A stretch of 64,000 nt of DNA from Candidatus Nomurabacteria bacterium (GCA_023898625.1 CP060231.1:801890-865889); one strand, 5' to 3'; shown: positions 1 to 36,193, counted from the first letter of the stretch. Program-made: numbers and translations. The notes: generated by a model from the sequence alone, not told the origin.

Positions 1-1
1 T

Positions 2-247
2 AATATCGTACTACCTAGATTACGTGACTTTCATGGTGTTAGTAATAAGGCTTTTGACAAGCAAGGCAACTACAGTATTGGGCTGACAGATCAAACTGTG
101 TTCCCAGAAATTAGCTTTGAAGATTCACCGATTACACATGGATTGCAGGTTGTATGTGTAATTAAGTCTGAAAAAGCAGAAGATTCTAAGGCGTTGTTAG
201 TAAAGTTTGGGATGCCTTTTGAAAAGTCAAATAAGGAGACGAAATAA
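2..247 (+). CDS. rplE: 50S ribosomal protein L5, C-terminal part (5' end lies outside the window)
   Basis: Open frame from the window edge translating [40 protein letters not shown].... The TAA stop at 245-247 overlaps the rpsN ATG. It sits upstream of S14-S8-L6. Confidence 0.9.
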
Positions 248-516
248 TGGCTAAGAAATCAATCGTTGCACGTGATAAAAAACGACAAGAAATGATCAAA
301 AAATATGCTTCAAAACGTGAAGCCCTTAAAGCAAGTGGAGATTTTGACGCCCTACATAAGTTACCACGAAATTCATCACCTACTCGTTGGAAGAATCGCT
401 GTTCGGAGACTGGTCGACCCCGAAGCTACATGCGAACATTTGGATTGAGTAGAATTTCATTCAGAGAACACGCATCAAAGGGTGAGATTCCTGGCGTAAC
501 AAAGGCGAGTTGGTAA
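247..516 (+). CDS. rpsN: 30S ribosomal protein S14 (long, Cys-free form)
   Basis: 89-aa [17 protein letters not shown]...[18 protein letters not shown]...W, in the spc operon position. Confidence 0.95.
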
Positions 517-525
517 GGAGTAAAT

Positions 526-921
526 ATGGTTTCAACAGACCCAATAGCAGATATGTTAACAAGAATTCGTAATGCAATTTTAGTTCGAAAAAACGAGATA
601 GAATTGCCATATTCTAAAATTAAAGAATCTGTTGCGAAACTTCTTGTTGATAACAACTTTATAAGTAGTGTTAAAGCAGACGGAGACGGAATAGATAAGA
701 AATTAATCTTGATAATTAATCCAGCTGGCACTAACGCAAATATTACTGAAATTCAACGTTTGAGTACTCCTGGTCGCCGACACTACGTAAATGTTAAGAA
801 TATTCCTGTGGTCAAGAATGGTCGTGGAATTGTAATAATTTCAACCTCGCAAGGTTTAATGACAGGTCAGGACGCTAGGGCTAAACACCTTGGTGGAGAG
901 CTTGTTTGTAAGGTTTATTAA
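526..921 (+). CDS. rpsH: 30S ribosomal protein S8
   Basis: 131 aa with the DPIADMLTRIRNA N-terminus typical of S8; operon context. Confidence 0.95.
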   Translation: MVSTDPIADMLTRIRNAILVRKNEIELPYSKIKESVAKLLVDNNFISSVKADGDGIDKKLILIINPAGTNANITEIQRLSTPGRRHYVNVKNIPVVKNGRGIVIISTSQGLMTGQDARAKHLGGELVCKVY

Positions 922-1025
922 TGAATTCAGCACTCTTTATATTGTTAGGTGGTTTGCTGTCTGCAATAGCATTGGGTGTATCAATATGGAATATAGGAAA
1001 GAATAAGAAAGGAAAGAAGTTATGA
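921..1025 (+). CDS. Putative 34-aa single-pass membrane micropeptide (MNSALFILLGGLLSAIALGVSIWNIGKNKKGKKL)
   Basis: Not in the ORF track because it is under 60 aa. Its ATG overlaps the rpsH stop (TAATG at 919-923) and its TGA overlaps the rplF start (ATGA at 1022-1025). It therefore fills the whole rpsH-rplF gap. The peptide has a hydrophobic helix followed by a Lys-rich tail. Confidence 0.45.
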   Translation: MNSALFILLGGLLSAIALGVSIWNIGKNKKGKKL

Positions 1026-1561
1026 GTCGAATAGGAAAACGACCAATCAAGCTCCCAGCTGGTGTGACAATTACTGTCGATGACAATTTCATAACAGCCA
1101 AAGGGCCTAAAGGTGAATTGCAACAATTCACAATGCCCGGAATTACTGTTGCAGTTGATGGCGATATCGTAAACGTCACGCGCAAAGATGACGAAGCAAT
1201 CCATCGTGCAAAGCATGGTTTGATGAGGTCGCTGGTTAATAATATGGTTACTGGAGTAACCGAAGGGTTCAGCAAAAAGCTAGAGCTTCATGGTGTGGGT
1301 TTTAGAGTAGCGCTGGCTGGAAATCAGCTAAAAATGAACTTGGGCTTTTCACACGAAGTAATATATACACTACCAGAAGGTATTTCAGCAAAAGTCGAGC
1401 AGAATACAATTACAATTTCAGGTATTTCAAAACAACAGGTTGGGCAAGTTTCAGCAGAAATCCGCGCACTAAAGAAACCAGAGCCATACAAAGGTAAAGG
1501 TATCCGTTATGAGGGTGAACATATCATCCGTAAGAGTGGAAAGTCAGGAAAGGATAAGTAG
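1022..1561 (+). CDS. rplF: 50S ribosomal protein L6
   Basis: 179 aa MSRIGKRPIKLPAGV...; operon order. Confidence 0.95.
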   Translation: MSRIGKRPIKLPAGVTITVDDNFITAKGPKGELQQFTMPGITVAVDGDIVNVTRKDDEAIHRAKHGLMRSLVNNMVTGVTEGFSKKLELHGVGFRVALAGNQLKMNLGFSHEVIYTLPEGISAKVEQNTITISGISKQQVGQVSAEIRALKKPEPYKGKGIRYEGEHIIRKSGKSGKDK

Positions 1562-1562
1562 T

Positions 1563-1919
1563 ATGAATCGTCTAGCAAAAACATCTCAGAATTTAGTACG
1601 ACGCAAGAATCGTATCCGACACAACATAAGTGGTACTGCTGATCGACCAAGACTGACTGTATTTATTAGTAATCAACATGTCAGTGCCCAGGTTATTGAC
1701 GATACTACACACAATACGCTGGTTTATGTGACAACTGTAGGCAGTAAATCTGCCAAAGGTAATTTAACGTCTAAAGCAGAATTTGTCGGATCAGAAATAG
1801 CCAAGAAATGTAAGTCAAAGAAAATTAATAAAGTCGTGTTCGATAGAAATGGACGACTGTATCATGGTCGAATTAAGGCGTTAGCCGAAAAAGCCCGAGA
1901 AGGCGGATTGGAGTTTTAA
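1563..1919 (+). CDS. rplR: 50S ribosomal protein L18
   Basis: Start trimmed to the ATG at 1563 (MNRLAKTSQNLVRRKNRIRH...), directly after the rplF stop. The C-terminus reads YHGRIKALAEKAREGGLEF. Confidence 0.93.
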   Translation: MNRLAKTSQNLVRRKNRIRHNISGTADRPRLTVFISNQHVSAQVIDDTTHNTLVYVTTVGSKSAKGNLTSKAEFVGSEIAKKCKSKKINKVVFDRNGRLYHGRIKALAEKAREGGLEF

Positions 1920-1920
1920 T

Positions 1921-2487
1921 ATGGCAGAACGTAATACAAGCACAAATCCAAGGCAAGTTCAGACCGAGCAAGACCCAAATCAATTAGACGAAAGAATGGT
2001 TCATATTGATCGCGTTGCTCGCGTAGTTAAGGGTGGTCGTCGATTTAGGTTTCGAGCATTAGTAATAGTCGGTGATCATAAGGGTAGAGTTGGTGCTGGA
2101 GTATCAAAAGGTCAGGATGTAACTACGGCAGTATCTAAGGCTACAGATGTCGCCAAAAAGAACATGGTTAAAATTTCACTATATAAAGACACTATTCCAC
2201 ATGAGACAGAGGCCAAAGTATCCGGAGCTAAGATTTTATTGAAGCCAGCCAGCCCTGGTACTGGTTTGATTGCTGGGGGAGTTGTCCGAACCGTATTAGA
2301 GGTAGCCGGAATTGGAAACGCTTTATCTAAATCGCTAGGTTCTTCAAACAAAATCAATATCGCTTATGCTACTATTGATGCTCTAAAGAATATGGAACCT
2401 GCCAGTAAGTGGGTCACCAAGAAAGATTCACCGACAAAGAAATCTACGGCAAAGACAACAACTAAGTCAAAGTCGGAGGATAAATAA
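1921..2487 (+). CDS. rpsE: 30S ribosomal protein S5 (with Lys/Thr-rich C-terminal tail)
   Basis: 188 aa containing VVKGGRRFRFRALVIVGD and KILLKPASPGTGLIAGG motifs. Confidence 0.95.
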   Translation: MAERNTSTNPRQVQTEQDPNQLDERMVHIDRVARVVKGGRRFRFRALVIVGDHKGRVGAGVSKGQDVTTAVSKATDVAKKNMVKISLYKDTIPHETEAKVSGAKILLKPASPGTGLIAGGVVRTVLEVAGIGNALSKSLGSSNKINIAYATIDALKNMEPASKWVTKKDSPTKKSTAKTTTKSKSEDK

Positions 2488-2488
2488 G

Positions 2489-2956
2489 ATGAAGTTTAAT
2501 CAGTTACAAACAGCGAAGTCAAAATCAATCACTCGTGTAGGGCGTGGTATTTCTGCTGGTAAAGGAAAGACAGCAGGGCGTGGCACCAAAGGCCAAAATT
2601 CTCGAACAGGTGGTGGTGTGCGACCAGGATTTGAGGGTGGTCAAAATCCATTAGCTCAAAGATTACCAAAGCTTCCAGGGTTTAAGTCCAAAACACCAAA
2701 GGCTGAGAACGTATACACTGGACAACTAGATAGTTTAGGGGCTAACATAGATAATTTTAAACTTGCACAAGCAGGTATTGTCACTAATCCATATACTAGA
2801 GTTAAGTTGATATTAAAAGGTGATGTTACAAAGAAAACGACTATTAAGGTGCAATCTGCAAGCAAATCAGCAGTTAAGGCCGTTGAAAAAGCTGGCGGTA
2901 AGGTAGAGATTATTGAGCGCCAAAAAAGACAAAAGCAAGAAAAAACAACAAAATAA
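2489..2956 (+). CDS. rplO: 50S ribosomal protein L15
   Basis: 155 aa with the Gly/Lys/Arg-rich N-terminus GRGISAGKGKTAGRGTKGQ. It starts 2 nt after the rpsE stop, leaving no room for rpmD (L30). Confidence 0.95.
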   Translation: MKFNQLQTAKSKSITRVGRGISAGKGKTAGRGTKGQNSRTGGGVRPGFEGGQNPLAQRLPKLPGFKSKTPKAENVYTGQLDSLGANIDNFKLAQAGIVTNPYTRVKLILKGDVTKKTTIKVQSASKSAVKAVEKAGGKVEIIERQKRQKQEKTTK

Positions 2957-3013
2957 GTTTTTATTCTGACAATTTATAGATACAATAAGATTAATGAGAG
3001 GGAATAGTCGTTA

Positions 3014-4519
3014 ATGAACTGGAAAATCATCCTTAAATCATTCACAAACAATGATATGCGAAAAAAGATATTTGCTGTCGTTGGAATGATTGTAATTTTT
3101 AGGATTTTGGCACATATACCTATTCCAATTGCTAATGGTGAAACTTTACAGCAAATTCTTGAAACACTTTTTAATTCCACTCAATCTTCACAGTTGTTAG
3201 GATTTATGGATGTTCTTTCGGGCGGGGCATTAGCTAATTTTTCAATAATGCTTGTAGGTTTGGGTCCGTTCATTAATGCCTCGATTATTATGCAGTTGCT
3301 AACAAGAGCAATTCCAAAGCTCGAAGCTCTGAATAAAGAAGGTGAATTTGGGCGAAAAAAAATAAATCAATACACAAGAGTATTGGCACTACCGCTTGCT
3401 ATAATTCAGTCAATAGGCTCAATATATTTGGTACGTCAAACAGCATCTAGTATTGGTGGCTTAGGCGATATCACGGCCAATGCTAGTTTTTCTCAATGGG
3501 TTTTGATGGTTTCCGCGCTTGCTGGAGGTGCAATGCTGTTGATGTGGCTAGGAGAGTTGATTACCGAACAAAATATCGGTAACGGTATTTCGTTAATTAT
3601 TACGATAGGTATCGTTAGTCAACTTCCAACAACCGGGATTAATTTATTAAATAGTGTTATCCAAGATGAAAAGAAATGGACCATTTTCGGTAAACAACTT
3701 CCAATTGATGAAAAGGCATTTTGGCTTAGTCTATTAATAATCTCGATAATTGTTATCACAACGATACTAGTGGTTAAACTAAATGAAGCTGCCAGAAACC
3801 TAACGGTTAACTATGCCAAACGTGTGCAAGGAAACAGAATTTATGGAGGAGTTACAACCATACTTCCGGTAAAATTAATAACAGCAGGTGTTATTCCAAT
3901 AATCTTTGCCGTAGCATTCTTGAGCGTACCTAGCTTTTTAGGACAAATCTTTTCCAATTCATCAAGTGATCGTTTGAAAGAAATTGGAACACACTTAGTT
4001 CAACTATTTCAACCACCAAGCCCTCAGACATTTGCTACGGGAGGCTGGCAACCTTATGTTTACCCCATAGTCTATTTCTTGTTAGTATTTATCTTTACAT
4101 TCTTTTATACATCGATTGCGTTTAACTCCAAAGAAATAGCTGAGAATCTCCAACAACAGGGTGGATTCATTGAAGGCGTAAGATCCGGAAATCAAACAGA
4201 GAAATATCTAAATAAGGTGATGAATAGATTGACGTTGTTTGGGGCTATAGCTCTTGGACTTTTGGCGGTTATGCCAATAATCGCTCAGGCATTTTTAGGT
4301 GCCAATATTTCATTAGGTGGAACCAGCTTGTTGATTTTGGTTGCTGTATCCTTAGAAACACTACGAATGCTCGAATCACAAGCCTTGATGTTAACATATG
4401 ATCAGTACGATCAACCCGATTATTTGTACAAATCATCAGAAACTTTATCAAAGAAACAAAATAGAATAAAGGTTATATCTAAACTTGCATTACCCAAAGG
4501 TAAGAAAAAAACTAAATAA
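3014..4519 (+). CDS. secY: Preprotein translocase subunit SecY
   Basis: 501 aa polytopic protein with GPFINASIIMQLL and GNGISLII motifs; follows rplO. Confidence 0.95.
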   Translation: MNWKIILKSFTNNDMRKKIFAVVGMIVIFRILAHIPIPIANGETLQQILETLFNSTQSSQLLGFMDVLSGGALANFSIMLVGLGPFINASIIMQLLTRAIPKLEALNKEGEFGRKKINQYTRVLALPLAIIQSIGSIYLVRQTASSIGGLGDITANASFSQWVLMVSALAGGAMLLMWLGELITEQNIGNGISLIITIGIVSQLPTTGINLLNSVIQDEKKWTIFGKQLPIDEKAFWLSLLIISIIVITTILVVKLNEAARNLTVNYAKRVQGNRIYGGVTTILPVKLITAGVIPIIFAVAFLSVPSFLGQIFSNSSSDRLKEIGTHLVQLFQPPSPQTFATGGWQPYVYPIVYFLLVFIFTFFYTSIAFNSKEIAENLQQQGGFIEGVRSGNQTEKYLNKVMNRLTLFGAIALGLLAVMPIIAQAFLGANISLGGTSLLILVAVSLETLRMLESQALMLTYDQYDQPDYLYKSSETLSKKQNRIKVISKLALPKGKKKTK

Positions 4520-4572
4520 GTAACGTCTTATTAGGCTAAAGAAGTGGGATTAGCTAGATATTTATTTCCCCC

Positions 4573-5722
4573 TGCATAAGTTCAGAAACATATTGGACTC
4601 CTGAAGGCTAGCGATAGCTAGCTGGGAAGGAGTCTTTTTATGCAACAGATATATACTGAATCATTCTTGAGGGGTTATGCTCGTAAGACTATGAGATCTA
4701 TACAAGACATAACCCAACACCCATATAAACATGTAATTGAGCAAAGACTCAAGATAATTCAGTTCTATGATGATTTCGGGGAACAAGCCACCAGACAAGC
4801 TTTTAGCGTAAGTAGGAGCACTGTGTTCAGCTGGAAGAGGCGTCTAAAGGATAACAATGGCTCACTCAGATGTTTAGCTCCAAAGAGCACTGCACCAAAA
4901 CACAAACGCAAGCGAATGGTAGATATGCGTATTACTAACTTTATTCTAGAACAAAGAAGCTTACACCCTAAGCTAAGTAAAGATAAGCTAGCCGTATTAC
5001 TCAAAGATGAGTGTACAGCTTGGAATCTAAAACCACCTTCGGCATCTACCGTAGGTAGAATCCTCAAAGACCTTAAGTTTCAAGGCCTATTACCAAAATA
5101 TACCAGGTTAACCGTTTCAGGTGCTACCGGCAAACTACTTGAGAAACAAAGTCGTAAGCCAAGACTCAATAAACAACGCAGGAATGGTTATCAGCCTGAG
5201 CAACCAGGAGATATGCTACAGATAGACACTATTGTTAAGTTTATAAACGGTATACGCCGTTATGTACTTACAGCAGTAGATTACAAAGGTAGATTCGGCT
5301 TTGCCTATGGCTATACTAGCCCCAGTAGTACCAACGCAGCAGACTTCCTGAACAAACTGCAAGCTGTTACCCCATTTGAGATCAGACGAGTGCATCATGA
5401 CAATGGTAGTGAGTTCTACAAACACTTCATAAGAGCCTGTGATGAACGAAACATTGAACAGCTCTGGAACTATCCCAAAAGACCTAAGAATAACGGAATG
5501 GTTGAAAGATTTAACCGTAGCATCCAAGAAGAGTTTATAGACTGGAACCTAGATAATCTAGCCTATGACCTTGAGGATTTCAATAATTCATTGATGGACT
5601 GGTGTATATGGTATAACACAAAAAGACCACATTATGGACTTGGTTTAAAAAGTCCAATGCAGTACTTACTAGAAGTGTTACAATTAAGCCAACAGGAGTC
5701 CAGAATGTTATGGACGGATACA
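4573..5722 (+). mobile_element. IS481-family insertion sequence (about 1.15 kb) with imperfect terminal inverted repeats and a 5-bp CCCCC direct repeat
   Basis: The left end is TGCATAAGTTCAGAAACATATTGGACTCCTG (4573-4603). The reverse complement of the right end is TGTATCCGTCCATAACATTCTGGACTCCTG (5693-5722). The inner 10 nt TGGACTCCTG are identical. CCCCC flanks both ends directly (4568-4572 and 5723-5727). Confidence 0.75.
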
Positions 5723-5746
5723 CCCCCTTTCATTCCCCAACCATAA
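4640..5746 (+). CDS. IS481-family DDE transposase (HTH plus rve integrase core)
   Basis: 368 aa. The DDE triad candidates are LQIDT, HHDNGSEF and NGMVERFNRSIQEEF, plus the YNTKRPHYGLG motif. The ORF reads through the right IR and stops 24 nt beyond it. Confidence 0.85.
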   Translation: MQQIYTESFLRGYARKTMRSIQDITQHPYKHVIEQRLKIIQFYDDFGEQATRQAFSVSRSTVFSWKRRLKDNNGSLRCLAPKSTAPKHKRKRMVDMRITNFILEQRSLHPKLSKDKLAVLLKDECTAWNLKPPSASTVGRILKDLKFQGLLPKYTRLTVSGATGKLLEKQSRKPRLNKQRRNGYQPEQPGDMLQIDTIVKFINGIRRYVLTAVDYKGRFGFAYGYTSPSSTNAADFLNKLQAVTPFEIRRVHHDNGSEFYKHFIRACDERNIEQLWNYPKRPKNNGMVERFNRSIQEEFIDWNLDNLAYDLEDFNNSLMDWCIWYNTKRPHYGLGLKSPMQYLLEVLQLSQQESRMLWTDTPPFIPQP

Positions 5747-5993
5747 CCAGTACAATATTACTCAGTACATTAAGTAGTTGAGTGGTACCAACAAGTCGTA
5801 GTTAATAACAGACTTATATCAAATCCTGCACTTACCTATTCTGCCTAAACAAAGTTAGTATTAGTCACATAGTATAGGCTAAGTATCAATAAGCTATACG
5901 ACATAATTCATCAACACCCCATCTCAACAACCAACAAATTAGTAGTACCTAAAATAGCAACTAATTTAGATAAATACCAAATCATTCATTAAT

Positions 5994-8900
5994 ATGAAAC
6001 TAAACCCCAAAGCCCTACTATCCAAACTACCACTACCTTTCTGGGCTTCCTTCTATCTATTTCTCATCATACTTACCATACCAGTACTAGCTTATATAGG
6101 CACACTCAGTAAAGCAGATCCCGGAACCCTAACAGTAACCATCAATCAAAAAACAGGCACAACAGACCCCAATCCTTCTTATACATCAGTATTCACTGTA
6201 GTATTCAATGAAGCCATAAACAGTAACACCTTCACCAACACAGACATTACTCTAGGTGGTACCGCACCAGGGCAAACTATCCAATCTATTACTGAAGCTG
6301 GAGCCTTCAACAAAACCACCTACGAAGTCCGAATCCAAGCCACCGGAGCTGGAACCATCATCCCAACCATAGCCCAAGAACTCATCACTGCCCAAAGCAA
6401 CAACACTAACACCAACCAAGCCTCTAGCTCATCAGACAATACAGTTACCTATGATGGAACCTATGCACCGAATGAATTTGTTACCACCTGGAAGACAGAC
6501 AACCCAGGAATAAGTGCCAGTAATCAAATAACTATACCTACACATTGGACTGGAGGATACAACTACAACGTAGACTGGGGAGACTCTACCACTAGCTCTA
6601 ACCAAACCGGAGACTCCACCCATACTTACTCAACACCAGGAACATACACCGTAAAAATATCCGGAACATTTCCTAGAATACATTTTGGAAAAGGTGTTTC
6701 AGATTATATAAAAATCTTAACTGTAGAGCAGTGGGGTTCAAACCCTTGGACTTCAATGAACGAGTCATTTTACTTCCCATATAATCTAACCATCCCTGCT
6801 ATAGATGCTCCGAACTTATCCAATGTAACTGATATGAGTTCTATGTTCTCGAAGGCAACTTCACTAAATCAATCACTTAATCATTGGGATGTAGGTAACA
6901 TAACTAATATGAGTAGAATGTTTAATGAGGCAAGTACATTTAACCAATCTTTGAACAATTGGAACACATCAAATGTGACAAATATTTCTGGAATGTTTGC
7001 ATACGCCACTTCTTTTAATGGTCTTATAAATGATTGGACCACATCAAACGTAACTGATATGTCTGGAGTGTTTGTAGGCGCTACAATCTTCAATCAGCCA
7101 CTAAACAATTGGGATACCAGTAGTGTAACCGACATGAGTTGGATGTTTTATCAAGCGACTTCTTTCAATCAATCTTTGAGCAATTGGAATACATCAAATG
7201 TGACAAAATTAAATATAATGTTCACCGAAGCGGCAGCTTTCAATCAGCCACTAAATAACTGGAATGTCGTTAATGTACTTGATTTATCAAATCTATTTGC
7301 TCGAGCGACTTCATTCAATCAACCTTTGAATAATTGGAATACCAGTAATGTTACGAATATGTCTGGACTGTTTGCGGGCGCTGCATCATTCAATCAACCT
7401 TTGAATAATTGGAATACCAGTAATGTTACGAATATGTCTGGACTGTTTGTGGGCGCTACGTCGTTTAACCAGCCACTTAGCGGCTGGGACTTGAATAGTG
7501 TGACAAATATGACGATGATGTTTTCTAGTACTTCAATTCAAGTTGCGCCTGGAGTAACATTATCTCCTTCCGGCCTCTCCACCACCAACTATGACTCTAC
7601 CCTAGCCGGTTGGTCATCCCAATCATTACAAAGTGGTGTCACCTTTGATGCCGGCACTAGCAAATACTGTAACTCTGAAACCCAAAGGCAAAGTATAATA
7701 ACCAATCACTCATGGACTATTAACGATGGTGGTAAAGATTGTAGTTCTATTGGCTCAACTGAATTCATTACTACCTGGAAGACAGACAACTCAGGAGTAA
7801 GCGGAAGCAATCAAATAACTGTTCCTACCTTTTCAGGAGAAACCTACAACTACAACGTAGACTGGGGAGACTCTACCACTAGCTCTAACCAAACCGGAGA
7901 CTCCACTCATACTTACTCAACACCAGGAACCTACACAGTCAAGATAACTGGAACCTTTCCTAGAATATATTTCGATGGAACAACCGATCACGATAAGATC
8001 CTAACAGTTGAACAATGGGGAACTAACCCTTGGACATCCATGAATGGTGCATTTTCGGGCGCATCCAACATCACAATCCCTGCAACTGACGCACCAGATT
8101 TATCCGGTGTGACTGATATGAACGGCATGCTCCAGGGGGTAAGTACCTTTAATAGTAATATAAACAACTGGGATGTCAGCAACGTAACTAATATGGGGAG
8201 TATGTTTGCGGGAACAACAAATTTCAACCAACCTCTCAACAGCTGGGATGTCAGCAATGTAACAGCAATGGATGGAATGTTTTTCGGGGCAACGTCTTTT
8301 AACCAAAATATTGACAGTTGGGACGTTAGTTCAGTAATTAATATGAGCGGTATGTTTTCTGGGGCAAGCGATTTCAATCAGCCCTTAAATAGCTGGGATG
8401 TCAGCTCGGTAGAAAATATGACAGGAATGTTTGGCGGTGCACTAGATTTTAACCAACCTCTAAATAATTGGAATACTGAGAATGTAACAGAAATGGTGGG
8501 AATGTTTGCTAGCGCAACTTCTTTTAATCAGTCTCTAGATTCATGGGATGTAGGTAATGTAACATTAATGAATTACATGTTTGGTAATGCTAATGGATAC
8601 TTAGAGCAAGCTTTTGCAGGTGTTCCATATGAAGATTGGCCAGCAATGTTCCAAGCATTATACAATCTTCCGATGTCAGGCTTATCAACCGCTAATTATG
8701 ATGACACTCTCATCTCATGGGCACAGCAAACAGTTCAACAAGGAGTAGTATTTGGTGGTGGAACGAGTAAGTATTGTTTGTCGGAGACTTATAGACAAGC
8801 ATTAATTAGTAACGATTCGTGGTCTATAACTGATGCCGGCAAAGATTGCCAAGGAGTGTCACTAGATAAGCCTCAAAACTTATCAGGCACGCCTTTTACT

Positions 8901-11900
8901 AGAATTGTTGAACTAGACTGGGATTCTGTAACTGGATCACACCATTACGATGTGCAATACAAAAAGACCTCTGAAAGTTCATGGGTTGATTACGTGGATT
9001 CAACAGTTTATGGGTCGTTTATTTCCATCTATGATCTAGATCCACAGACATCCTACGATTTTAGGGTTAAGACAGTTAGAAGTGATAGTATTACTAGTGA
9101 TTGGTCGGATATCCTAACGGTTACAACTCTACCACAATCAACGTATCATATAACAAATTGTCAACAGTTGCAGGCAATAAGTATCGACCCAGTTACTTAT
9201 GAGTTAGGAGATGCCTCCGGGAATTACATCATTGATAATAATATTGATTGTAGTGAGTCATCAAATTGGGATTGGCAAGGACTCCTGCCTGTAGAGATGC
9301 AACAAACTACAGGTTTTGTGAGCATATATAACATTACTAACGGAGGAGATTTTACCGGAAATTTTGAAGGCCAAGGACATACCATTAGTGGACTATACCA
9401 AGATTCTGATAGATATGGTGGGCTATTTTATACTATAAAGTACAGTAGTATCAAAGATATAAATCTCGCCAACATAGATGTAAATTTTACGTCTAATCAT
9501 ATAACGTCAAGTTGTCAGAATGAGTCTTCGTTTAGTGTTATCGATGAATCTAATGTTTGTAGTGCTATAGGTGGATTGGTTGGTGGCATGAGGGAAAACT
9601 CTAAGATTAGTAATATCTCAGTGGGTGGCCAAATACATGTTGACTCTACCCCCATTAGCAATGCGAATGGTTACGAAACAACAAATATTATTGGTGGCCT
9701 TGTTGGCGTTGGGTCTGATACGTCTTTTGATGGTGTTGTTGATATCAATAACTCATCATCTAACGTAAATATTACTGTTTCTAGCTCAAATAAGACGGTA
9801 GCACAGCCTGGGCTTCAAGATTTTGTAGCAAAAATATTTAGCCTGGATGTTGGTTATGAGAATAATGACCCGAACTATACTAGTATTATTGCTGGTGGGG
9901 TTATAGGTTCTGCGTTGGGATTTGAGATTTCAAATGTTCAGGCTAACGGAGGGGTGTCAACTAACGGTTATTATAATGTTAGATCAGTTGGTAATCTAGC
10001 TGGAGTTTTTGCTTCTGCTTTTGATTCTTCTATAAGTAATAGTACTGCAGGGGGAACTATCGAATGTCAGGGCGGAGGATCAATGAGCTCAATTGGTGCA
10101 GGTGTCGGTATTGTTATGAATATGATCCCGCTTAACCTTAGCAACTCTGAGAATATTTTTAGCAATGCATCTATACACGATATCTCAACATCAACAAATA
10201 TAAATTGTAGTGTTGATTATAGTTCATTTAGTGTTGGAGGTGTCATTGGGGCAACCTTTTCAATGGCTCCAGCAATAGAAGCTATCGAGCCAGAAGTTGT
10301 ATATAACAATCTTTCATCGACAGGCAACATAAGTATAGGGGCCAGTAAATATCGATCTTACACAAATTTTGCATACTCCATATTCACATACTTTGGTGGT
10401 CCACATAAAATTTTGGATGGTGTCGGTGGTATTATTGGGTCTGTTGCTGGTGGGCCAAGTGGTGCTGATTTTAAAATAAGTAAAACATCTGTAAAATCCT
10501 CTCACTCTAGTTCTAATATAACAGTAAAGTCTGGTATACCTATCGGTGGTCTTGTTGGTTTAACAGAGGGAAGAGTACTGATTGAGGAGAGCGACTCGTC
10601 AGGCAACATAGTAAGTGATACTACAGAATGGGCACAACAGCCTTCTGAATGTTACTTCGCACCAGATGCCAATAGTGATTGCGCTGGGTACTATTTTAGT
10701 TATGGTATTGCCGGCGGGCTAGTCGGTATGGCAAACGGCAATTGTTCTTATCCAATAACAGAATTCCAAGACGACAATACAAACTGTGAGAATCGTATTG
10801 ATATACAAAATGCAAAAGCAACGGGCAATGTCGAAGCACTCAATGGTAGGGGCATATCGGGCGGGTTAGTCGGGACGGCGAATAATACATTAATAAGCCG
10901 TTCATACTCTTCTGGAGAAGTACAATCGAGGATTGCCGGCGGGCTAGTCGGGGTAATTATCTCCGATTCGGTAAATAATCAAGGTATTGAAAACTCGCAT
11001 TCAACCAGCCAAGTAACTTCAACGTATGACCCAAGTAATCCAACATATTTTGATGAAGGGTTTTTGTTCGGAGGATCCATACCAATCGCTGGTGGACTAG
11101 CGGGGATATCCATGGCGCAAATATCTTCATCATATGCTTCTGGAGATGTTACCATTCAACAATCTGCCAGCCGGATAGGTAACGGAAGGTTATATGGGGT
11201 AGGTAGTGCCGGAGGGCTGGTTGGTTATGGAATCGCTGGCTTAGATACATCTAACTTAATTACCCTACCACCAGAGGATAGGCCAAACCCAGTGAATTTT
11301 GCACCATTCTTTACGCGTCCATCAACGGATCCACTCGGTGTTTTTGGCGTCGTTAACTCTTTTGCTACCGGTAAGGTTAGCGTACCTAGTAACGAGGTTT
11401 ATGTACCTATTATTGATAAGAATGTTCCTGTTATTAGTGCTGGTTTGATTGGTATGTATCCCGAATATCGTGATCCAGATTATATTTCACAGAATAATAT
11501 TTTGCCACTAGATTTTAATAGTTATTATGATGTTGAAAAAACAGGACAAGACGAATGTGTTAAAGATATTTCTGTAATTATTGGGGCACTTGCGTATCCA
11601 GATATGTATTCCGACTGTCACCCCATCAACACCGATGGTTCTCAACCTAACTACTTCAAGAACAACTCTACCAACCCCCCCTTGAACCAATGGAACTTCT
11701 CTACTATATGGAAGACTAACTGTACTAACTATCCAGACTTTGTAGGCTCAACCAACTGTAATCCATCCAACCCTCCAGAAAACCCAGGCAATGGCAATCC
11801 TCCAACAACTCCAACTACCCCAACCACCCCTACAACTCCTACAACCCCAACCAATCCTCCAAAGACTCCTAGTACCACCAAACCACCTACTCCCACAACT

Positions 11901-13769
11901 CCAACCACTCCTCCATCTCCAACAACTCCCACAGAATCAGACACCCCTTCATCTTCATCCAATAATCAGTACTACTCCAACCCTCAATCTACAGCACTAC
12001 CAGCTCCCCTATCTAAAGTAGTCAAAGGTTCCTTCATGCAATCTCTAGTGAACTATACTGCTAACAATATACCTAAACCCGTAGCTAAAGCCATTCCATA
12101 CAGCCTACTCATACTTCTACTAGCTCTCTCAGCCCTCTATGGCTATTCTAGCTATCTAGAAAACAAAAGAAGACAAGCTCTCCAAGCTCTCATCACTCGC
12201 TTTAAATCTCTACTATCGGCTAGAGCTACCTTCCTACGTATTACCTCCCACTACATCAATACACCGATCACTAAGATCCAAGGAACCATAGAACTACTAG
12301 CTATGGGTACTACTTCAACCACAACTGCTAATACCACAACAGCAAGTACCAACACCACAAACAATAACTCAAGTACTAACAATAACTCTACAGGCTCTAA
12401 TACCAACCCTCCTACTAATACCAGCTCTACTCCTCCAAGTAACACTACTAGCTCTACCAGTAATCCAGGCACTACCTACACCCCTAACTCTAGCTCCCAG
12501 ACTAGTTCAGCTTCCGTAAACAGCTCTAGCAATCAGGCTAGTACCACCAGCTCCATCAGTTCTACTCCTAGCTCCCCTAATAGCATTAGTATACCTATTA
12601 ATACTAACTCTAGCTCTCAGTCTGGTTCAGCTTCCGTGTTCACCTCAACCCTAGCCACTACAGCTACCACTCTAACTATCCCAGAAGCCTCTATCGTAGC
12701 CTCTAAGTCAGCCATCAAGAGTCTCACTAACCATGCCAATGAACTACTAGATGAAGGACAATCCCTCACCGGAAGACAACAAGCTAACATCAGAAACCTA
12801 GAACAAAGAAAAGGACTTAGCTTCCTAACCCATCCTTTCTTCTGGCTCCCAGTAGTAGTTATCTCTACCTTAGTAGTACTACTCAACATCATCTTCATTC
12901 AAGCTGAACGCTATACCCCTACAGCTATTACTATTGCTTCTCAACTTATCCTAGGCTTCGTTGGTGTTATAGCTTTAGGTGTCAGCTACTACTTCTACCG
13001 TTCCTTCCAGTCCCAAAGACAAGCTCTACTAACCGAACAAGAAATAGAACAAGAGTTCAATGCTCGCCAAGCTAACTTCATAGCTGATGCCTACAACAAG
13101 CTCAACGATGACATCATAATCCTAGAAGGTGTCAGCCAAGACCTAGCTAAGTATCCTAAAGTCCGTAACTTCAACCAAGGCCTCAATGAACTAAAAGACA
13201 TAGTCTCCCAACTAGAAAAACTCAGCAACCTATCTAAGCATGTCCCAGGACTGCAATACCACACCAACCTAAGCAGTACTATATCTACTACCCTAACTAA
13301 CCTCAGATCCCTAGCTGACCAACAGAACATCACTATAACTACCAACAACATCAAACCCAACCAAAACGTCAACATAGAAGCTAATGCTCTAACCCATCTA
13401 CTGTCAGCTCCACTCAAGAATGCTATCTCAGCTAGTACTGCTGGCTCCAATATAGAACTATCCCAATCCAACCACAAAGCCAACAAATCTAACCAGATAA
13501 ATAAACCCAACACAGTAACTACCAACCTTAGCAATACCAACCTACCTATCCAAATAACTATTACCGATCATGGCAAAGGCATACCCCCAGAACAACTAAA
13601 CAATATCTTTACCCCATTCAACTCAGCCCATAGCCTAGAACACTTCACTGATACCGGACTAGGACTAGACCTCTACCTATGCAAAGTAATTGCCGAACAA
13701 TACAACGCCAACCTAACCATCACCAGCCAACCAGGAGAAGGCACAACAGTGATAGTGGGGATGGGGTGA
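5994..13769 (+). CDS. Giant (2,591 aa) membrane-anchored adhesin-like protein fused to a C-terminal histidine-kinase module
   Basis: Single uninterrupted ORF. Domain order: N-terminal TM anchor; Ig-like segment; two modules of PKD-like (YNYNVDWGDS...HTYSTPGTYTVKI) plus about 25-aa DUF285/BspA-type LRRs (FNQPLNNWNTSNVTNMSGMF); FN3; about a dozen GLUG-type GGLVG repeats; PT-rich stalk; TM; H-box (ATFLRITSHYINTPITKIQGTIELL); S/T-rich tract; two TM helices; HATPase_c boxes (LKNAISAS, DHGKGIP, IFTPF, GLGLDLYLCKVIAEQYNANLTITSQPGEGTTV). Confidence 0.85.
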   Translation: MKLNPKALLSKLPLPFWASFYLFLIILTIPVLAYIGTLSKADPGTLTVTINQKTGTTDPNPSYTSVFTVVFNEAINSNTFTNTDITLGGTAPGQTIQSITEAGAFNKTTYEVRIQATGAGTIIPTIAQELITAQSNNTNTNQASSSSDNTVTYDGTYAPNEFVTTWKTDNPGISASNQITIPTHWTGGYNYNVDWGDSTTSSNQTGDSTHTYSTPGTYTVKISGTFPRIHFGKGVSDYIKILTVEQWGSNPWTSMNESFYFPYNLTIPAIDAPNLSNVTDMSSMFSKATSLNQSLNHWDVGNITNMSRMFNEASTFNQSLNNWNTSNVTNISGMFAYATSFNGLINDWTTSNVTDMSGVFVGATIFNQPLNNWDTSSVTDMSWMFYQATSFNQSLSNWNTSNVTKLNIMFTEAAAFNQPLNNWNVVNVLDLSNLFARATSFNQPLNNWNTSNVTNMSGLFAGAASFNQPLNNWNTSNVTNMSGLFVGATSFNQPLSGWDLNSVTNMTMMFSSTSIQVAPGVTLSPSGLSTTNYDSTLAGWSSQSLQSGVTFDAGTSKYCNSETQRQSIITNHSWTINDGGKDCSSIGSTEFITTWKTDNSGVSGSNQITVPTFSGETYNYNVDWGDSTTSSNQTGDSTHTYSTPGTYTVKITGTFPRIYFDGTTDHDKILTVEQWGTNPWTSMNGAFSGASNITIPATDAPDLSGVTDMNGMLQGVSTFNSNINNWDVSNVTNMGSMFAGTTNFNQPLNSWDVSNVTAMDGMFFGATSFNQNIDSWDVSSVINMSGMFSGASDFNQPLNSWDVSSVENMTGMFGGALDFNQPLNNWNTENVTEMVGMFASATSFNQSLDSWDVGNVTLMNYMFGNANGYLEQAFAGVPYEDWPAMFQALYNLPMSGLSTANYDDTLISWAQQTVQQGVVFGGGTSKYCLSETYRQALISNDSWSITDAGKDCQGVSLDKPQNLSGTPFTRIVELDWDSVTGSHHYDVQYKKTSESSWVDYVDSTVYGSFISIYDLDPQTSYDFRVKTVRSDSITSDWSDILTVTTLPQSTYHITNCQQLQAISIDPVTYELGDASGNYIIDNNIDCSESSNWDWQGLLPVEMQQTTGFVSIYNITNGGDFTGNFEGQGHTISGLYQDSDRYGGLFYTIKYSSIKDINLANIDVNFTSNHITSSCQNESSFSVIDESNVCSAIGGLVGGMRENSKISNISVGGQIHVDSTPISNANGYETTNIIGGLVGVGSDTSFDGVVDINNSSSNVNITVSSSNKTVAQPGLQDFVAKIFSLDVGYENNDPNYTSIIAGGVIGSALGFEISNVQANGGVSTNGYYNVRSVGNLAGVFASAFDSSISNSTAGGTIECQGGGSMSSIGAGVGIVMNMIPLNLSNSENIFSNASIHDISTSTNINCSVDYSSFSVGGVIGATFSMAPAIEAIEPEVVYNNLSSTGNISIGASKYRSYTNFAYSIFTYFGGPHKILDGVGGIIGSVAGGPSGADFKISKTSVKSSHSSSNITVKSGIPIGGLVGLTEGRVLIEESDSSGNIVSDTTEWAQQPSECYFAPDANSDCAGYYFSYGIAGGLVGMANGNCSYPITEFQDDNTNCENRIDIQNAKATGNVEALNGRGISGGLVGTANNTLISRSYSSGEVQSRIAGGLVGVIISDSVNNQGIENSHSTSQVTSTYDPSNPTYFDEGFLFGGSIPIAGGLAGISMAQISSSYASGDVTIQQSASRIGNGRLYGVGSAGGLVGYGIAGLDTSNLITLPPEDRPNPVNFAPFFTRPSTDPLGVFGVVNSFATGKVSVPSNEVYVPIIDKNVPVISAGLIGMYPEYRDPDYISQNNILPLDFNSYYDVEKTGQDECVKDISVIIGALAYPDMYSDCHPINTDGSQPNYFKNNSTNPPLNQWNFSTIWKTNCTNYPDFVGSTNCNPSNPPENPGNGNPPTTPTTPTTPTTPTTPTNPPKTPSTTKPPTPTTPTTPPSPTTPTESDTPSSSSNNQYYSNPQSTALPAPLSKVVKGSFMQSLVNYTANNIPKPVAKAIPYSLLILLLALSALYGYSSYLENKRRQALQALITRFKSLLSARATFLRITSHYINTPITKIQGTIELLAMGTTSTTTANTTTASTNTTNNNSSTNNNSTGSNTNPPTNTSSTPPSNTTSSTSNPGTTYTPNSSSQTSSASVNSSSNQASTTSSISSTPSSPNSISIPINTNSSSQSGSASVFTSTLATTATTLTIPEASIVASKSAIKSLTNHANELLDEGQSLTGRQQANIRNLEQRKGLSFLTHPFFWLPVVVISTLVVLLNIIFIQAERYTPTAITIASQLILGFVGVIALGVSYYFYRSFQSQRQALLTEQEIEQEFNARQANFIADAYNKLNDDIIILEGVSQDLAKYPKVRNFNQGLNELKDIVSQLEKLSNLSKHVPGLQYHTNLSSTISTTLTNLRSLADQQNITITTNNIKPNQNVNIEANALTHLLSAPLKNAISASTAGSNIELSQSNHKANKSNQINKPNTVTTNLSNTNLPIQITITDHGKGIPPEQLNNIFTPFNSAHSLEHFTDTGLGLDLYLCKVIAEQYNANLTITSQPGEGTTVIVGMG
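6471..8849 (+). repeat. Internal tandem duplication of a PKD-like plus LRR plus cap module inside the giant gene (module 1 at 6471-7742, module 2 at 7758-8849)
   Basis: Both modules start (N/T)EF(V/I)TTWKTDN and end GGKDC/AGKDC. An approximately 85-nt stretch is nearly identical (6566-6650 vs 7847-7931). Confidence 0.85.
7312..7461 (+). repeat. Two near-perfect tandem 75-bp (25-aa) LRR units
   Basis: Copies at 7312-7386 and 7387-7461 read cattcaatcaacctttgaataattggaataccagtaatgttacgaatatgtctggactgtttg. They differ only in the last few bases. Confidence 0.9.
8871..9135 (+). other. Fibronectin type III-like domain of the giant protein
   Basis: PQNLSGTPFTRIVELDWDSVTGSHHYDVQYKKTSESSWVDY...YDFRVKTVRSDSITSDWSDILTVTTLP matches the FN3 pattern. 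Confidence 0.7.
9400..11240 (+). other. GLUG-motif repeat region of the giant protein
   Basis: Recurrent (I/V)(G/A)GL(V/A)G followed by N/S-rich turns: IGGLVGGM, IIGGLVGVG, IGGLVGLTEG, IAGGLVGMANG, ISGGLVGTANN, IAGGLVGVI, IAGGLAGIS, AGGLVGYG. Confidence 0.6.
11761..11965 (+). repeat. Pro/Thr-rich low-complexity stalk (PTTPTTPTTPTTPTNPPKTPSTTKPPTPTTPTTPPSPTTPT)
   Basis: Direct reading of the translation. It generates the antisense GVVGVVG shadow ORF at 11729-11962. Confidence 0.9.
12180..12300 (+). other. HisKA-like dimerisation/phosphoacceptor helix with the candidate phospho-His (codon 12249-12251)
   Basis: ENKRRQALQALITRFKSLLSARATFLRITSHYINTPITKIQGTIELL, compared with the canonical FLANVSHELRTPLTSI H-box. 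It lies immediately after the TM helix at 12091-12160. Confidence 0.55.
13383..13766 (+). other. HATPase_c (catalytic ATP-binding) domain of the giant protein
   Basis: N-box LKNAISAS, G1 ITDHGKGIP, F IFTPF, and G2 TGLGLDLYLCKVIAEQYNANLTITSQPGEGTTV. Confidence 0.75.
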
Positions 13770-13827: not shown

Positions 13828-14049
13828 ATGGCTAGCAACAAAGAAGTAATCGAGTTAAATGGTGTGATTGTGGAAACCTTACCGGGTACACAATTCAAAG
13901 TTGAACTCGAGAATGGCCATCAAATTATAGCTCATGTTGCTGGAAAGATGCGCAAACACTACATACGTATCGTGCCAGGTGACAGCGTTACGGTTGAGTT
14001 GACCCCTTATGATCTCACTAAGGGAAGAATCACCTATCGCAAATCATAA
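13828..14049 (+). CDS. infA: Translation initiation factor IF-1
   Basis: 73 aa with [46 protein letters not shown]. Confidence 0.95.
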
Positions 14050-14119
14050 ATAATAATACGCAGTGAGTTGCAATATATTGCAATCCGTAATCACCCACGA
14101 TAAGGAGACGATCAAAAGG

Positions 14120-14236
14120 ATGAAAGTACGTGCAAGTGTAAAGAAGATCAGCCCCGACGATAAGATAGTTCGTCGTAAAGGGCGACTTTACGTTATCAAT
14201 AAGCTAAAACCAAAGCATAAGCAGAGGCAAGGTTAA
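14120..14236 (+). CDS. rpmJ: 50S ribosomal protein L36 (Cys-free, non-zinc form)
   Basis: Not in the ORF track (38 aa): [38 protein letters not shown]. An AAGGAG RBS lies upstream, and it sits between infA and rpsM. Confidence 0.9.
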
Positions 14237-26850: not shown

Positions 26851-27615
26851 ATGTCACTATTTACCAAACAATTAACGGACCAGCACGACAATATTAATAA
26901 TGAAACAGATGCAACAGATATTAATTTATCATTAAGTCCATTAGATAATAGTAGTAAAGTCCAATACCAAGAACTACATTTAAAAACCACAAATAAGTTA
27001 CGTATTGTCAATAATTGCCTATTGGCCGTTTTAATAGTTATTAATACCTATATCATCCTAGTGCCTTTGATGCCACAACTTATCTATTCTAATAATATTA
27101 ATTCTGGCACGCAAAAACTGCTTGAGGAAACCATAAAGCAAAGGGTTGATAGCAATAAACCTACCAATAATGTTAGTAATGTAGCTACTTCCATAGCAAA
27201 CAAGAGCACTCCTAATACCTTAACCGTACCTTCTATGTTGTTAGACGAGCCAATTATTGAAGGGCAAAACTCTATCAAAGCATTAAGACAAGGTGTTTGG
27301 CGATGGCCTGGTGGTAGCACACCAGATAAAGGCGGAAATACTGTTTTGGCAGGACATCGTTTTACATATAATAAACCTAAGGGTACTTTTTACTTTCTTA
27401 ACAAGATAACCATAGGAGACACCATTGGTGTTACCTGGAGTGGCCATACATATATGTATAAAGTTATTGAGACCAAGACTGTTAAAACCTCGCAAACTGA
27501 TGTTTTGCATCCAACGGAACAACCAAGATTAACATTATATACCTGCACACCACTTTGGAACCCTAAGGATAGGCTCGTGGTAATTGCTGAGCTTCAGAAG
27601 AAGGATACTAAGTGA
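26851..27615 (+). CDS. Sortase (class E-like transpeptidase)
   Basis: 254 aa with an N-terminal TM, NTVLAGHRFTY, and the catalytic TLYTCTP (TLxTC). Confidence 0.85.
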   Translation: MSLFTKQLTDQHDNINNETDATDINLSLSPLDNSSKVQYQELHLKTTNKLRIVNNCLLAVLIVINTYIILVPLMPQLIYSNNINSGTQKLLEETIKQRVDSNKPTNNVSNVATSIANKSTPNTLTVPSMLLDEPIIEGQNSIKALRQGVWRWPGGSTPDKGGNTVLAGHRFTYNKPKGTFYFLNKITIGDTIGVTWSGHTYMYKVIETKTVKTSQTDVLHPTEQPRLTLYTCTPLWNPKDRLVVIAELQKKDTK

Positions 27616-27722
27616 ACGAAAAACGCCTATTTATTGTGCTGTGCTTGCTGATATTGTTGAGTATCGGACTGATGCTATACATATCAGGCAATGCAAATAA
27701 TGTCATAGTTTCATTGGGATAA
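27612..27722 (+). CDS. Possible 36-aa hydrophobic peptide (VNEKRLFIVLCLLILLSIGLMLYISGNANNVIVSLG)
   Basis: A GTG start overlaps the sortase TGA (GTGA at 27612-27615). It has a single predicted TM helix. It is under 60 aa and has no supporting homology. Confidence 0.2.
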   Translation: MNEKRLFIVLCLLILLSIGLMLYISGNANNVIVSLG

Positions 27723-34993: not shown

Positions 34994-36109
34994 GTGAACG
35001 ACGAAGCAAAACAGTTGACACCAAAACGTGGCTCGCTAGAGCATGAACGATTAAGTAGCTTGATTAACAGCATGGCAGATGGCGTTATTGCCATTGATGA
35101 TCAGATGAATGTAGCTATATATAATGGAGCGGCTCTAAATATCATCAATATAAATACTGCTATTACTAACAAGAGTATAAGCCAGGTTCTTAAACTACAA
35201 GATAAAAATGGTCAACCAATAAATCTAGTAGAACTTATAAACAGCCTAAAGACACAGTATTCAAATAGGGATTTGGTGCTTAGCTATCCAGATGGTAGCC
35301 AGATTAACGTATATCTTAGTATTGCGCCTGTTAGATTAGGCTACGGTATAAATGGAACAAAGGGGCATGTTGTCTTGATTCGTGACATTACTCATGAAAA
35401 ATCACTAGAGGAAGAACAGGCAGAGTTTACAAGTGTCGCGAGTCATGAGCTAAGAACTCCGATTACAATAGCTGAAGGAAACATAAGCAACGCTTTAGTG
35501 CTTGCGGAAAAGTTTGGCAACAATCCATCAATATTAGATGCATTAAAGCAAGCCCATCAGCAGATAGTCTTTTTGAGTGACTTAATAAACGACTTATCAA
35601 CCTTATCGAGAGCTGAACAAAACAAGCTTAAAGTTAATATCGAAAGTATAAATGTACATCAGTTTATATTAGATATCTCAAAGAATTATCAGCCTCAGAT
35701 AGAAGCAAAAGGTCTAAAACTACATCTAGAATTAGCGCCGAATCTAGAACTACTTAATACAAGTAAACTTTATCTTGGTGAAGTATTGCAAAATTTTATT
35801 ACTAACGCCATAAAGTACACAACTGAAGGCAGTGTTACGATTGGTGCTAAACCTCATGTTAAAGGGGTGCAGTTTTATATCAGAGATACAGGTATTGGCA
35901 TTAGCAGGAATGATCAAACAAAAATATTCAATAAATTCTTTAGGTCTGAAGATTTCAGAACAAGACAAAGTAATGGCACTGGTTTAGGTTTATATATAAC
36001 TTTAAAGCTAGCAAAGTTAATACATGCTGAGATTAATGTTCAGAGCGAATTAAATAAGGGCTCGTTATTTACAATATTAATTCCAAATTTAAGCATAGAG
36101 CATCATTGA
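34994..36109 (+). CDS. Cytoplasmic PAS-domain sensor histidine kinase
   Basis: H-box FTSVASHELRTPITIAEG, N-box LQNFITNAIKYT, G1 IRDTGIGI, G2 GTGLGLYITLKLAKL. The GTG start is uncertain. Confidence 0.85.
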   Translation: MNDEAKQLTPKRGSLEHERLSSLINSMADGVIAIDDQMNVAIYNGAALNIININTAITNKSISQVLKLQDKNGQPINLVELINSLKTQYSNRDLVLSYPDGSQINVYLSIAPVRLGYGINGTKGHVVLIRDITHEKSLEEEQAEFTSVASHELRTPITIAEGNISNALVLAEKFGNNPSILDALKQAHQQIVFLSDLINDLSTLSRAEQNKLKVNIESINVHQFILDISKNYQPQIEAKGLKLHLELAPNLELLNTSKLYLGEVLQNFITNAIKYTTEGSVTIGAKPHVKGVQFYIRDTGIGISRNDQTKIFNKFFRSEDFRTRQSNGTGLGLYITLKLAKLIHAEINVQSELNKGSLFTILIPNLSIEHH

Positions 36110-36193
36110 CAATGACATATGTAAGTAGTATTATTGACATGTTTGACCTACTATTAATAGTAGGTTTGTTAAATTTAGGAGGCTAAGCAGGCA

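Follow-up and report, generated by a model that had tools for sequence, protein, structure and literature searches.

Few gene arrays of bacteria are as conserved as the spc operon, which is used as a phylogenetic marker set, yet it is still able to gain genes. In the copy of this operon from a genome of the Saccharibacteria (TM7/CPR), rpsH and rplF, which encode the ribosomal proteins S8 and L6, are separated by 100 nucleotides, and this spacer contains an open reading frame (ORF) of its own. The locus raises the question of whether the spacer is a gene, how it originated, and what its product might do. The window, which denotes the whole stretch of 64,000 nucleotides that was analyzed, and the corresponding loci of related genomes were used to answer it.

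Organization of the rpsH–rplF junction

In the window, the S5 gene is followed by the L15 gene without an L30 gene in between (ORF list), which is typical of CPR bacteria. The gene rpsH ends with the codons AAG GTT TAT TAA, and its stop codon occupies positions 919–921. As proposed in the first-pass annotation, the gap to rplF is filled exactly by an ORF, which is evident from both the sequence and the ORF list (Table 1). The two proposed overlaps can be read directly in the sequence: the ATG of the ORF at 921–923 shares one base with the stop codon of S8 (TAATG), and its TGA at 1023–1025 lies within the ATGA of the rplF start. The resemblance of this geometry to that of neighboring genes also holds, with the one-base TAATG overlap recurring in the gene table at the L5/S14 and S17/L14 junctions. 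In composition-preserving shuffles of the spacer, an ORF that started no more than 5 nt from the S8 stop and remained open through to the ATGA arose in 151 of 20,000 cases (0.75%).

Table 1 Features of the rpsH–rplF junction, with positions counted from the first nucleotide of the window.
Feature	Position	Strand	Basis
rpsH, S8, 131 aa	526..921	+	ORF list; PF00410 on the identical gene in L081
SD-like TAAGGT at the end of rpsH, 6 nt 5' of the micropeptide ATG	909..914	+	sequence
Probable micropeptide gene, 34 codons and TGA, product MNSALFILLGGLLSAIALGVSIWNIGKNKKGKKL	921..1025	+	sequence, ORF list, conservation in L001, L085 and L083/L084
Predicted transmembrane helix, codons 4–24, ALFILLGGLLSAIALGVSIWN	930..992	+	Kyte-Doolittle (KD) hydropathy, AlphaFold2 (AF2), invariant columns
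98-nt unit, present as a tandem duplicate in certain strains of the species (L087, L088)	936..1033	+	contig sequences
Polybasic tail IGKNKKGKKL, codons 25–34, net charge +5	993..1022	+	charge count, low pLDDT
SD-like AAAGGAAAG for rplF, within the K-G-K codons of the tail	1008..1016	+	codon alignment
rplF, L6, 179 aa, conserved ATGAGT start	1022..1561	+	ORF list; the start provides the TGA of the micropeptide gene

The description of the ORF as unannotated is correct only in part: it has been given no name, but automatic gene calling had already entered the exact peptide of the window for contigs from 46 blocks of a public collection. The gene callers skipped the ORF on the three contigs L083–L085, and the variant encoded by L001 is absent from the gene-collection records. 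Peptides of this kind are missed by annotation or left without a name.

The Shine-Dalgarno-like TAAGGT at the end of rpsH is probably the ribosome-binding site of the micropeptide gene, and AAAGGAAAG in the codons of the tail probably serves rplF in the same way. In the codon alignment, the string AAA GGA AAG AAG is nucleotide-invariant across all four lineages that carry the ORF, which suggests a dual constraint imposed by the tail of the peptide and by the SD-like sequence of L6. The last four to five codons may double as the ribosome-binding site of L6, and their conservation may be exerted at the level of RNA.

Homologous ORFs in related genomes

Relatives with L6 identities between 94% and 74% were found by a search of the protein collection with L6 and by the contexts of the retrieved loci. 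In the closest species representative (L001), the L6 and S8 of which are 94% and 80% identical to those of the window, the spacer is also 100 nt long and is occupied in the same geometry by an ORF of 34 codons, which encodes the homologue MNPTAFIVIGILLSSIGLGVSIWQIGKNKKGKKL. A third 34-residue variant, MNPTPFIVIGILLSSIGLGVSIWNIGKNKKGKKL, is encoded by L085 (L6 94% identical). In L083 and L084 (L6 88% identical), the spacer is 5 nt longer, at 105 nt, and encodes a 35-residue homologue, MELFPIFILIGGLLCAVALGISLWQIGENRKGKKK; the ATG of this ORF is located 2 nt past the stop codon of S8, and its end is still on the ATGA of L6. When the proposed gene was followed through the relatives, the same frame was open in every one with a spacer of similar length (L001, L085, and L083/L084). 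The frame of the ORF relative to that of S8 is +2 in the window and +1 in L083, which excludes a conserved frameshift or read-through fusion of the peptide with S8.

The sister relatives L086 and L089–L092, with L6 identities of 82–84%, have spacers of only 9–17 nt, for example TAAAACGAGGTAATAAGATGAGTCGA. In a neighbor-joining tree of S8 and L6, the carriers of the ORF are one clade of four lineages and the non-carriers are its sister. The simplest reading of this distribution is a single gain of the micropeptide gene in the ancestor of a small clade of about genus rank. The gene is limited to this one small clade and is not general to Saccharibacteria. Therefore, the peptide is not essential to Saccharibacteria in general.

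Selection on the reading frame

Between the window and L083, the ORF has a synonymous divergence pS of 0.66, a non-synonymous divergence pN of 0.21, and an omega of 0.157; the corresponding values are 0.65, 0.089, and 0.063 for S8, and 0.70, 0.059, and 0.029 for L6. The synonymous divergence of the ORF thus equals that of its flanking genes. Values of omega from 0.13 to 0.22 were obtained in all comparisons with L083 and in that of L001 with L085, an estimate that rests on few substitutions because only four different sequences, of three to four lineages, are available. By contrast, omega is 0.48–0.67 when the window is compared with L001 or L085, where pS is lowered by a conserved block. The comparison with L001 alone (omega 0.67) is of little use for judging selection, because the 3' half of the ORF is nearly invariant in nucleotides despite saturated synonymous sites in S8.

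The conserved block extends from about 967 to about 1087 and spans the 3' half of the ORF and the first ~60 nt of rplF. Within it, the window and L001 are 93–98% identical in nucleotides, whereas S8 beside it is 58–75% identical; in L083, substitutions occupy 16 of 54 nt there, mostly at synonymous sites. The block is probably a recent recombination tract between species or a product of shared ancestry rather than of deep RNA constraint; alternatively, the initiation region of L6 may be strongly constrained among the members of the subclade.

Several properties of the divergence between the window and L083 point to selection on the encoded peptide. Synonymous and non-synonymous counts are unequal (Fisher p = 1.9e-4), and 10 of the 22 differing codons are synonymous in frame 0; in the two alternative frames, this applies to 2 of 23 and to 2 of 21 codons. 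Differences are distributed over the three codon positions as 11:4:17. When 30 random substitutions were simulated, the probability that no stop codon arose was 0.155 and that of 12 or fewer amino acid changes was 0.0013, and hydrophobicity was retained in stop-free trials with a probability of 0.021. The replacements among the variants are conservative (L/I/V, S/C, A/G, N/Q, and K/R), and 16 positions besides the start are invariant: F6, I7, G10, L12, L13, L18, G19, S21, W23, I25, G26, N28, and K30-G31-K32-K33. The ORF at 921–1025 is very probably a genuine protein-coding gene, under purifying selection and with a membrane peptide as its product.

Predicted structure of the micropeptide

The first-pass annotation described the product as a single-pass helix with a positively charged tail, and Kyte-Doolittle hydropathy, the charge of the tail, and AlphaFold2 all predict this architecture. 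The best 19-residue Kyte-Doolittle mean of the window peptide is 2.42, for residues 4–22, and the net charge of its final 11 residues is +5. In all four variants, the 19-residue mean is 2.06–2.64 (starting at residue 3 or 4 and ending at residue 21 or 22), and the net charge of the tail is +4 or +5. AlphaFold2 in single-sequence mode predicts one helix of residues 3–28 with a mean pLDDT of 83; past residue 28, the pLDDT is low and the chain has no helix and a disordered end.

The invariant residues of the helix are G10, L12, L13, L18, G19, S21, and W23. In the numbering of the window peptide, G10, S14, A17, S21, N24, and N28, spaced 4-3-4-3-4, line up on one small and polar face, and positions 11/15/19 display a G/A/S-xxx-G pattern. 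Faces of small residues serve helix-helix packing in membranes, and that of the micropeptide is probably used in the same manner. The positive-inside rule predicts that the lysine tail is cytoplasmic and that the three N-terminal residues are outside. Small membrane proteins are delimited by a length of at most 50 codons, evidence of selection, and a transmembrane segment; the micropeptide has 34–35 codons in four lineages, the divergence described above, and one predicted transmembrane helix.

Orphan status and origin of the gene

The micropeptide has no recognizable relatives outside its clade in the collections that were searched. No Pfam family scored over its curated cut-off, the only hits being HIG_1_N (E = 0.063) and IBIN (E = 0.22), both of which are far below, and NCBIfam contained no match at E ≤ 10. 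An exhaustive HMMER search of 1.84 billion protein representatives returned only the cluster of the peptide itself and one other sequence, P0123, a repetitive low-complexity ORF of 859 residues that was rejected as spurious. A concatenated query of two variants shared words with 14 candidates in the protein collection, none of them at E ≤ 10. A peptide-alignment scan of metagenome contigs matched 484 stretches, 0 of which were confirmed by tblastn, and a degenerate DNA pattern over the invariant residues had 0 matches in the metagenome collection, which indicates that the clade is missing from this collection or infrequent in it. Neither a paralogue nor similar DNA or peptide that could have been the source of the insert was found in the 64-kb window or in 92 loci.

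The signals at the two ends of the gene also occur where the gene does not. The AAGGT core in the K-V-Y codons of S8, 6–7 nt before the ATG, is present in the outgroups lacking the peptide; the sequence AAGGTTTATTA(A/G) at the end of S8 is common to L089, L091, and L092, which are without the gene; and ATGAGTCGA at the start of rplF is likewise found in peptide-less outgroups. Both ends of the gene thus appear to reuse older signals, the K-V-Y-stop codons of S8 and the ATGAGT start of L6. With such signals in place, a translated ORF could have emerged easily, and their reuse, together with the lack of a real homologue, fits either an origin de novo or the capture of a sequence that is no longer recognizable. 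Birth of the gene would have been cheap: besides an ATG, the insert had to supply nothing but a T-rich frame free of stop codons.

The S8–L6 junction across Saccharibacteria

A scan with the L6 protein of one genome per species yielded 80 loci, nearly all of them labelled Saccharibacteria or Saccharimonadales. Among the 70 species that have both genes, the S8–L6 spacer has a median length of 19 nt and is shorter than 45 nt in 56; the statement of the first-pass annotation that these genes are normally separated by a short spacer is therefore true for this phylum. The spacer is expanded to 59–2470 nt in the other 14 of the 70 species, and eight further species do not have S8 inside 3 kb upstream of L6. 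Taken together, 22 of 78 species show an expansion or disruption of the S8–L6 junction. Expansions affect 1 of 78 L6–L18 junctions, 3 of 76 S5–L15 junctions, and 7 of 70 S14–S8 junctions. The S8–L6 junction is a recurrent insertion point in Saccharibacteria, and it is worth checking when genes are concatenated or synteny is used in this group.

Sequences unrelated to one another have been inserted independently between S8 and L6 in L016 (2787-2999), L055 (2765-3004), L057 (582-776), L028 (2882-3001), L077 (1491-1676), and L075 (531-3000), where the insertion reaches 2.4 kb. In four of these loci, the gap is filled or nearly filled by an ORF, of 70 aa in L016, 39 aa in L028, 79 aa in L055, and 64 aa in L057, and these ORFs begin 2–3 nt past the S8 stop. 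Spacers of 59–165 nt without a gap-filling ORF are present in six lineages (L045, L046, L047, L049, L062, and L070).

A lineage with L6 about 60–62% identical to that of the window has a membrane protein of ~180 aa after S8 (L063:2379-2909, 176 aa), and a homologous ORF of 182 aa is located at L065:193-741. In L065 (193-741 and 2462-2875), more than 2 kb of extra genes lie between the membrane protein and L6, with no S8 within 3 kb. A separation of more than 2 kb is also observed in six or seven species similar to L065 (L067, L069, L071, L073, L074, and L078). The extra genes of the L065 type include ORFs on the opposite strand and a 137-aa HU-like ORF, and the spc operon appears to be split in this lineage.

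The insertions of other lineages resemble the micropeptide gene in occupying the same junction, and in several of them an ORF that is coupled to the flanking genes takes up all or nearly all of the inserted length; those of L063 and L065 encode a membrane protein too. They differ from it in being unrelated sequences, with predicted products of 39–182 aa, several of which would be hydrophilic, and with lengths of up to several kilobases. A search of the literature returned no description of a peptide gene located between rpsH and rplF, nor of insertions into the ribosomal protein operons of CPR bacteria.

Tandem duplication and variation within the species

A tandem duplication of a 98-nt unit is recorded on four contigs of the same species. 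The two that were read derive from different samples and have different styles of names (NODE_ and k141_), and the strains concerned are 100% identical to the window in S8 and 99.8% in L6. The second copy opens with the L6 start and its first four codons and then continues in phase with the peptide frame. It encodes a chimeric peptide of 33 aa, MSRI+FILLGG..., which is a cluster-mate of the window peptide. The resulting order is S8, the 34-aa peptide, the 33-aa peptide, and L6, with the junctions coupled by ATGA or GTGA. A single base distinguishes the two copies (ATGA in one and GTGA in the other), and this difference speaks against a simple artefact of assembly. The duplication indicates that the S8–L6 locus is still changing within the species.

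The start codon of rplF is polymorphic within the species, being ATG in the window and L082 and GTG in L081 (position 3102). GTG is also the start in the distal copy of the duplication (L087:1599), as compared with ATG at position 1022 of the window.

Proposed synthesis and function of the micropeptide

It is highly probable that the spacer is a young, lineage-restricted gene of a small single-pass membrane protein, coupled to the genes of S8 and L6. The gene would have been created by an insertion of ~100 nt into a rpsH–rplF spacer of ~10–20 nt. Ribosomes that end the synthesis of S8 would reinitiate at the overlapping ATG, aided by the SD-like TAAGGT, and after 34 codons they would terminate on the TGA inside the ATGA of L6 and reinitiate on L6. 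With reinitiation at both junctions, any translation of the spc operon would also yield the peptide, and this coupling geometry is the basis for the proposal of the first-pass annotation that the peptide would be made stoichiometrically with the ribosomal proteins. A chain of 34 residues has about the length of the ribosomal tunnel and would be released before its helix emerges; its insertion into the membrane would therefore be post-translational, by the SRP/YidC or the SecYEG route, or spontaneous. Post-translational insertion has reportedly been observed for E. coli YohP. In the membrane, the three-residue N-terminus would be outside and the lysine tail at the cytoplasmic face, against anionic lipids, and the face formed by Gly, Ser, and Ala may pack on another helix, belonging to a second copy of the peptide or to a larger membrane protein.

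The identity of any specific partner is far less certain than the existence of the gene. A link to the Sec translocon is conceivable but doubtful; secY is located 2 kb downstream in the same operon. It is quite unlikely that the peptide is a newborn adaptor, coupled to growth rate, that connects translation with the membrane of an ultra-small episymbiont; the helix, in the membrane alone or against SecYEG or YidC, and the lysine tail, placed on ribosomes or rRNA, would then form a lineage-specific tether or accessory of the translocon, encoded and produced together with the ribosomal proteins. If there is a partner, the peptide would be a protein whose production keeps pace with that of ribosomes, in an organism that has a very small proteome.

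Instead of encoding a functional peptide, the ORF might be only a translational bridge, which keeps the spacer translated from S8 to L6, thus maintaining coupling and avoiding polarity, with a peptide that is merely harmless. The reuse of existing signals at both ends, including an ATGA end forced by the conserved start of L6, would be expected of such a bridge, as would the orphan status and narrow distribution of the peptide, and the unrelated inserts of L016, L028, L055, and L057 are likewise filled or nearly filled by ORFs. However, a bridge requires nothing but an open frame, yet the ORF has an omega of about 0.15, invariant Gly, Ser, Trp, and Asn residues, and retained hydrophobicity, and L6 carries its own SD-like sequence. 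The six lineages that have 59–165-nt spacers and no gap-filling ORF imply that bridging is not required at this junction. The bridge on its own, the main rival explanation, is unlikely.

It is very improbable that the ORF arose by chance in a non-coding spacer, which could be an RNA element such as an operator that binds S8. The ORF is short, and the window and L001 are nearly identical from the 3' half of the spacer to the 60th nucleotide of rplF, next to a much more divergent S8, which could be taken for the footprint of an RNA. However, the RNA of the spacer folds worse than shuffled sequences (z = +1.57, its fold being matched or surpassed by 193 of 200 shuffles), and a search of Rfam with positions 1–6000 returned no match at E ≤ 1 except one chance snoRNA elsewhere. 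The substitutions of L083 in the conserved block, mostly synonymous, and the survival of the frame through a 5-nt change of length are those of a coding sequence, and shuffling rarely yields a gap-filling ORF. The spacer is explained by neither RNA structure nor a known family.

The architecture alone, a hydrophobic helix followed by a basic C-terminus, would also be that of a membrane-damaging peptide, that is, a type I toxin or an antimicrobial peptide. Ldr and PepA1-type toxins share this architecture, and Ldr, PepA1, and Fst toxins are similar to the micropeptide in having ~30–35 residues, with a hydrophobic helix and then basic residues. Unlike type I toxins, the micropeptide is embedded in and coupled to a constitutive, highly expressed, essential operon, and it has neither a promoter of its own nor the signals of an antisense RNA: no promoter- or terminator-like site was found in or beside 921–1025 on either strand, and the counts for the region equal those expected from shuffles. 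The natural duplication, moreover, doubles the dose of the peptide. A toxic function is very improbable. A bacteriocin with a double-glycine leader was rejected, because G10-G11 of the window peptide is G-I in L001 and L085 and the "leader" would consist of 11 hydrophobic residues.

The position upstream of secY in the operon and the lysine-rich codons right before the L6 start might suggest a regulatory upstream ORF, or an arrest peptide, by which translation from rplF to secY is adjusted in the manner of SecM or MifM, but this is the least probable explanation of all, because the force on a stalled chain in SecM and MifM needs a helix outside the tunnel, whereas the helix of a 34-residue chain stays in the tunnel until termination and its insertion cannot pull on the chain, conservation covers the hydrophobic helix and not the C-terminus alone, and the next gene is rplF, which encodes no secretion factor. 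In SecM, MifM, and VemP, the targeting helix precedes the arrest motif by tens of residues, whereas that of the micropeptide ends 10 residues from the stop codon.

Comparison with known small membrane proteins

A small single-pass membrane protein, which is the favored reading of the locus, has many counterparts. Small membrane proteins of up to 50 residues, the class studied by Hemm, Storz, and colleagues, include YohP, KdpF, CydX, AcrZ, and MgtS of E. coli; KdpF, CydX, and AcrZ function by packing of their helix against a larger membrane complex. The micropeptide is like them in size, in having one hydrophobic helix whose topology is set by a charged end, and in frequent omission from annotation, and its gene, like many of theirs, is located next to larger genes with which it would be co-transcribed. 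It has no sequence relationship to YohP, KdpF, CydX, AcrZ, or MgtS at the cut-offs of Pfam and NCBIfam, and differs from them in being encoded in a ribosomal protein operon, rather than in an operon of a membrane complex, and in one small CPR clade only. The micropeptide is a new orphan family within the well-known class of small single-pass membrane proteins and represents no new mechanism.

The presence of secY in the same operon invites comparison with SecE, SecG, and YajC, which are also small membrane proteins. The micropeptide has no homology to them in Pfam, NCBIfam, or the 1.84 billion representatives, and its topology and length are different. By reading of the ORF list, SecE is probably encoded elsewhere in the window, by the ORF at 36194–36565 that precedes a NusG-like ORF.

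Other features of the window

A hydrophobic ORF of 26 aa, MTMTYVSSIIDMFDLLLIVGLLNLGG, is located at 36106–36186 (+), where it overlaps the end of a 371-aa ORF just 5' of the SecE-like and NusG-like pair; it may be due to chance. Another hydrophobic micro-ORF at 27612–27722 (+), of 36 aa and with a GTG start, encodes MNEKRLFIVLCLLILLSIGLMLYISGNANNVIVSLG, which has a 19-residue Kyte-Doolittle mean of 3.02. It overlaps the end of an upstream ORF of 254 aa, and its exact product is absent from the gene collection.

A match to the Rfam family L10_leader at 44904–45040 (+), with 48 bits compared to a gathering score of 44, lies just 5' of an L10-like ORF at 45076. The match indicates that a classical autoregulatory leader of ribosomal proteins exists in this CPR genome.

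The ribosomal supercluster also contains a giant ORF of 2591 aa with a hydrophobic N-terminus at 5994–13769 (+). It is flanked by a 368-aa ORF after secY on one side, and on the other by an infA-like gene at 13828–14049 and an rpmJ-like gene within 14063–14236, which precede S13-, S11-, S4-, and rpoA-like ORFs.
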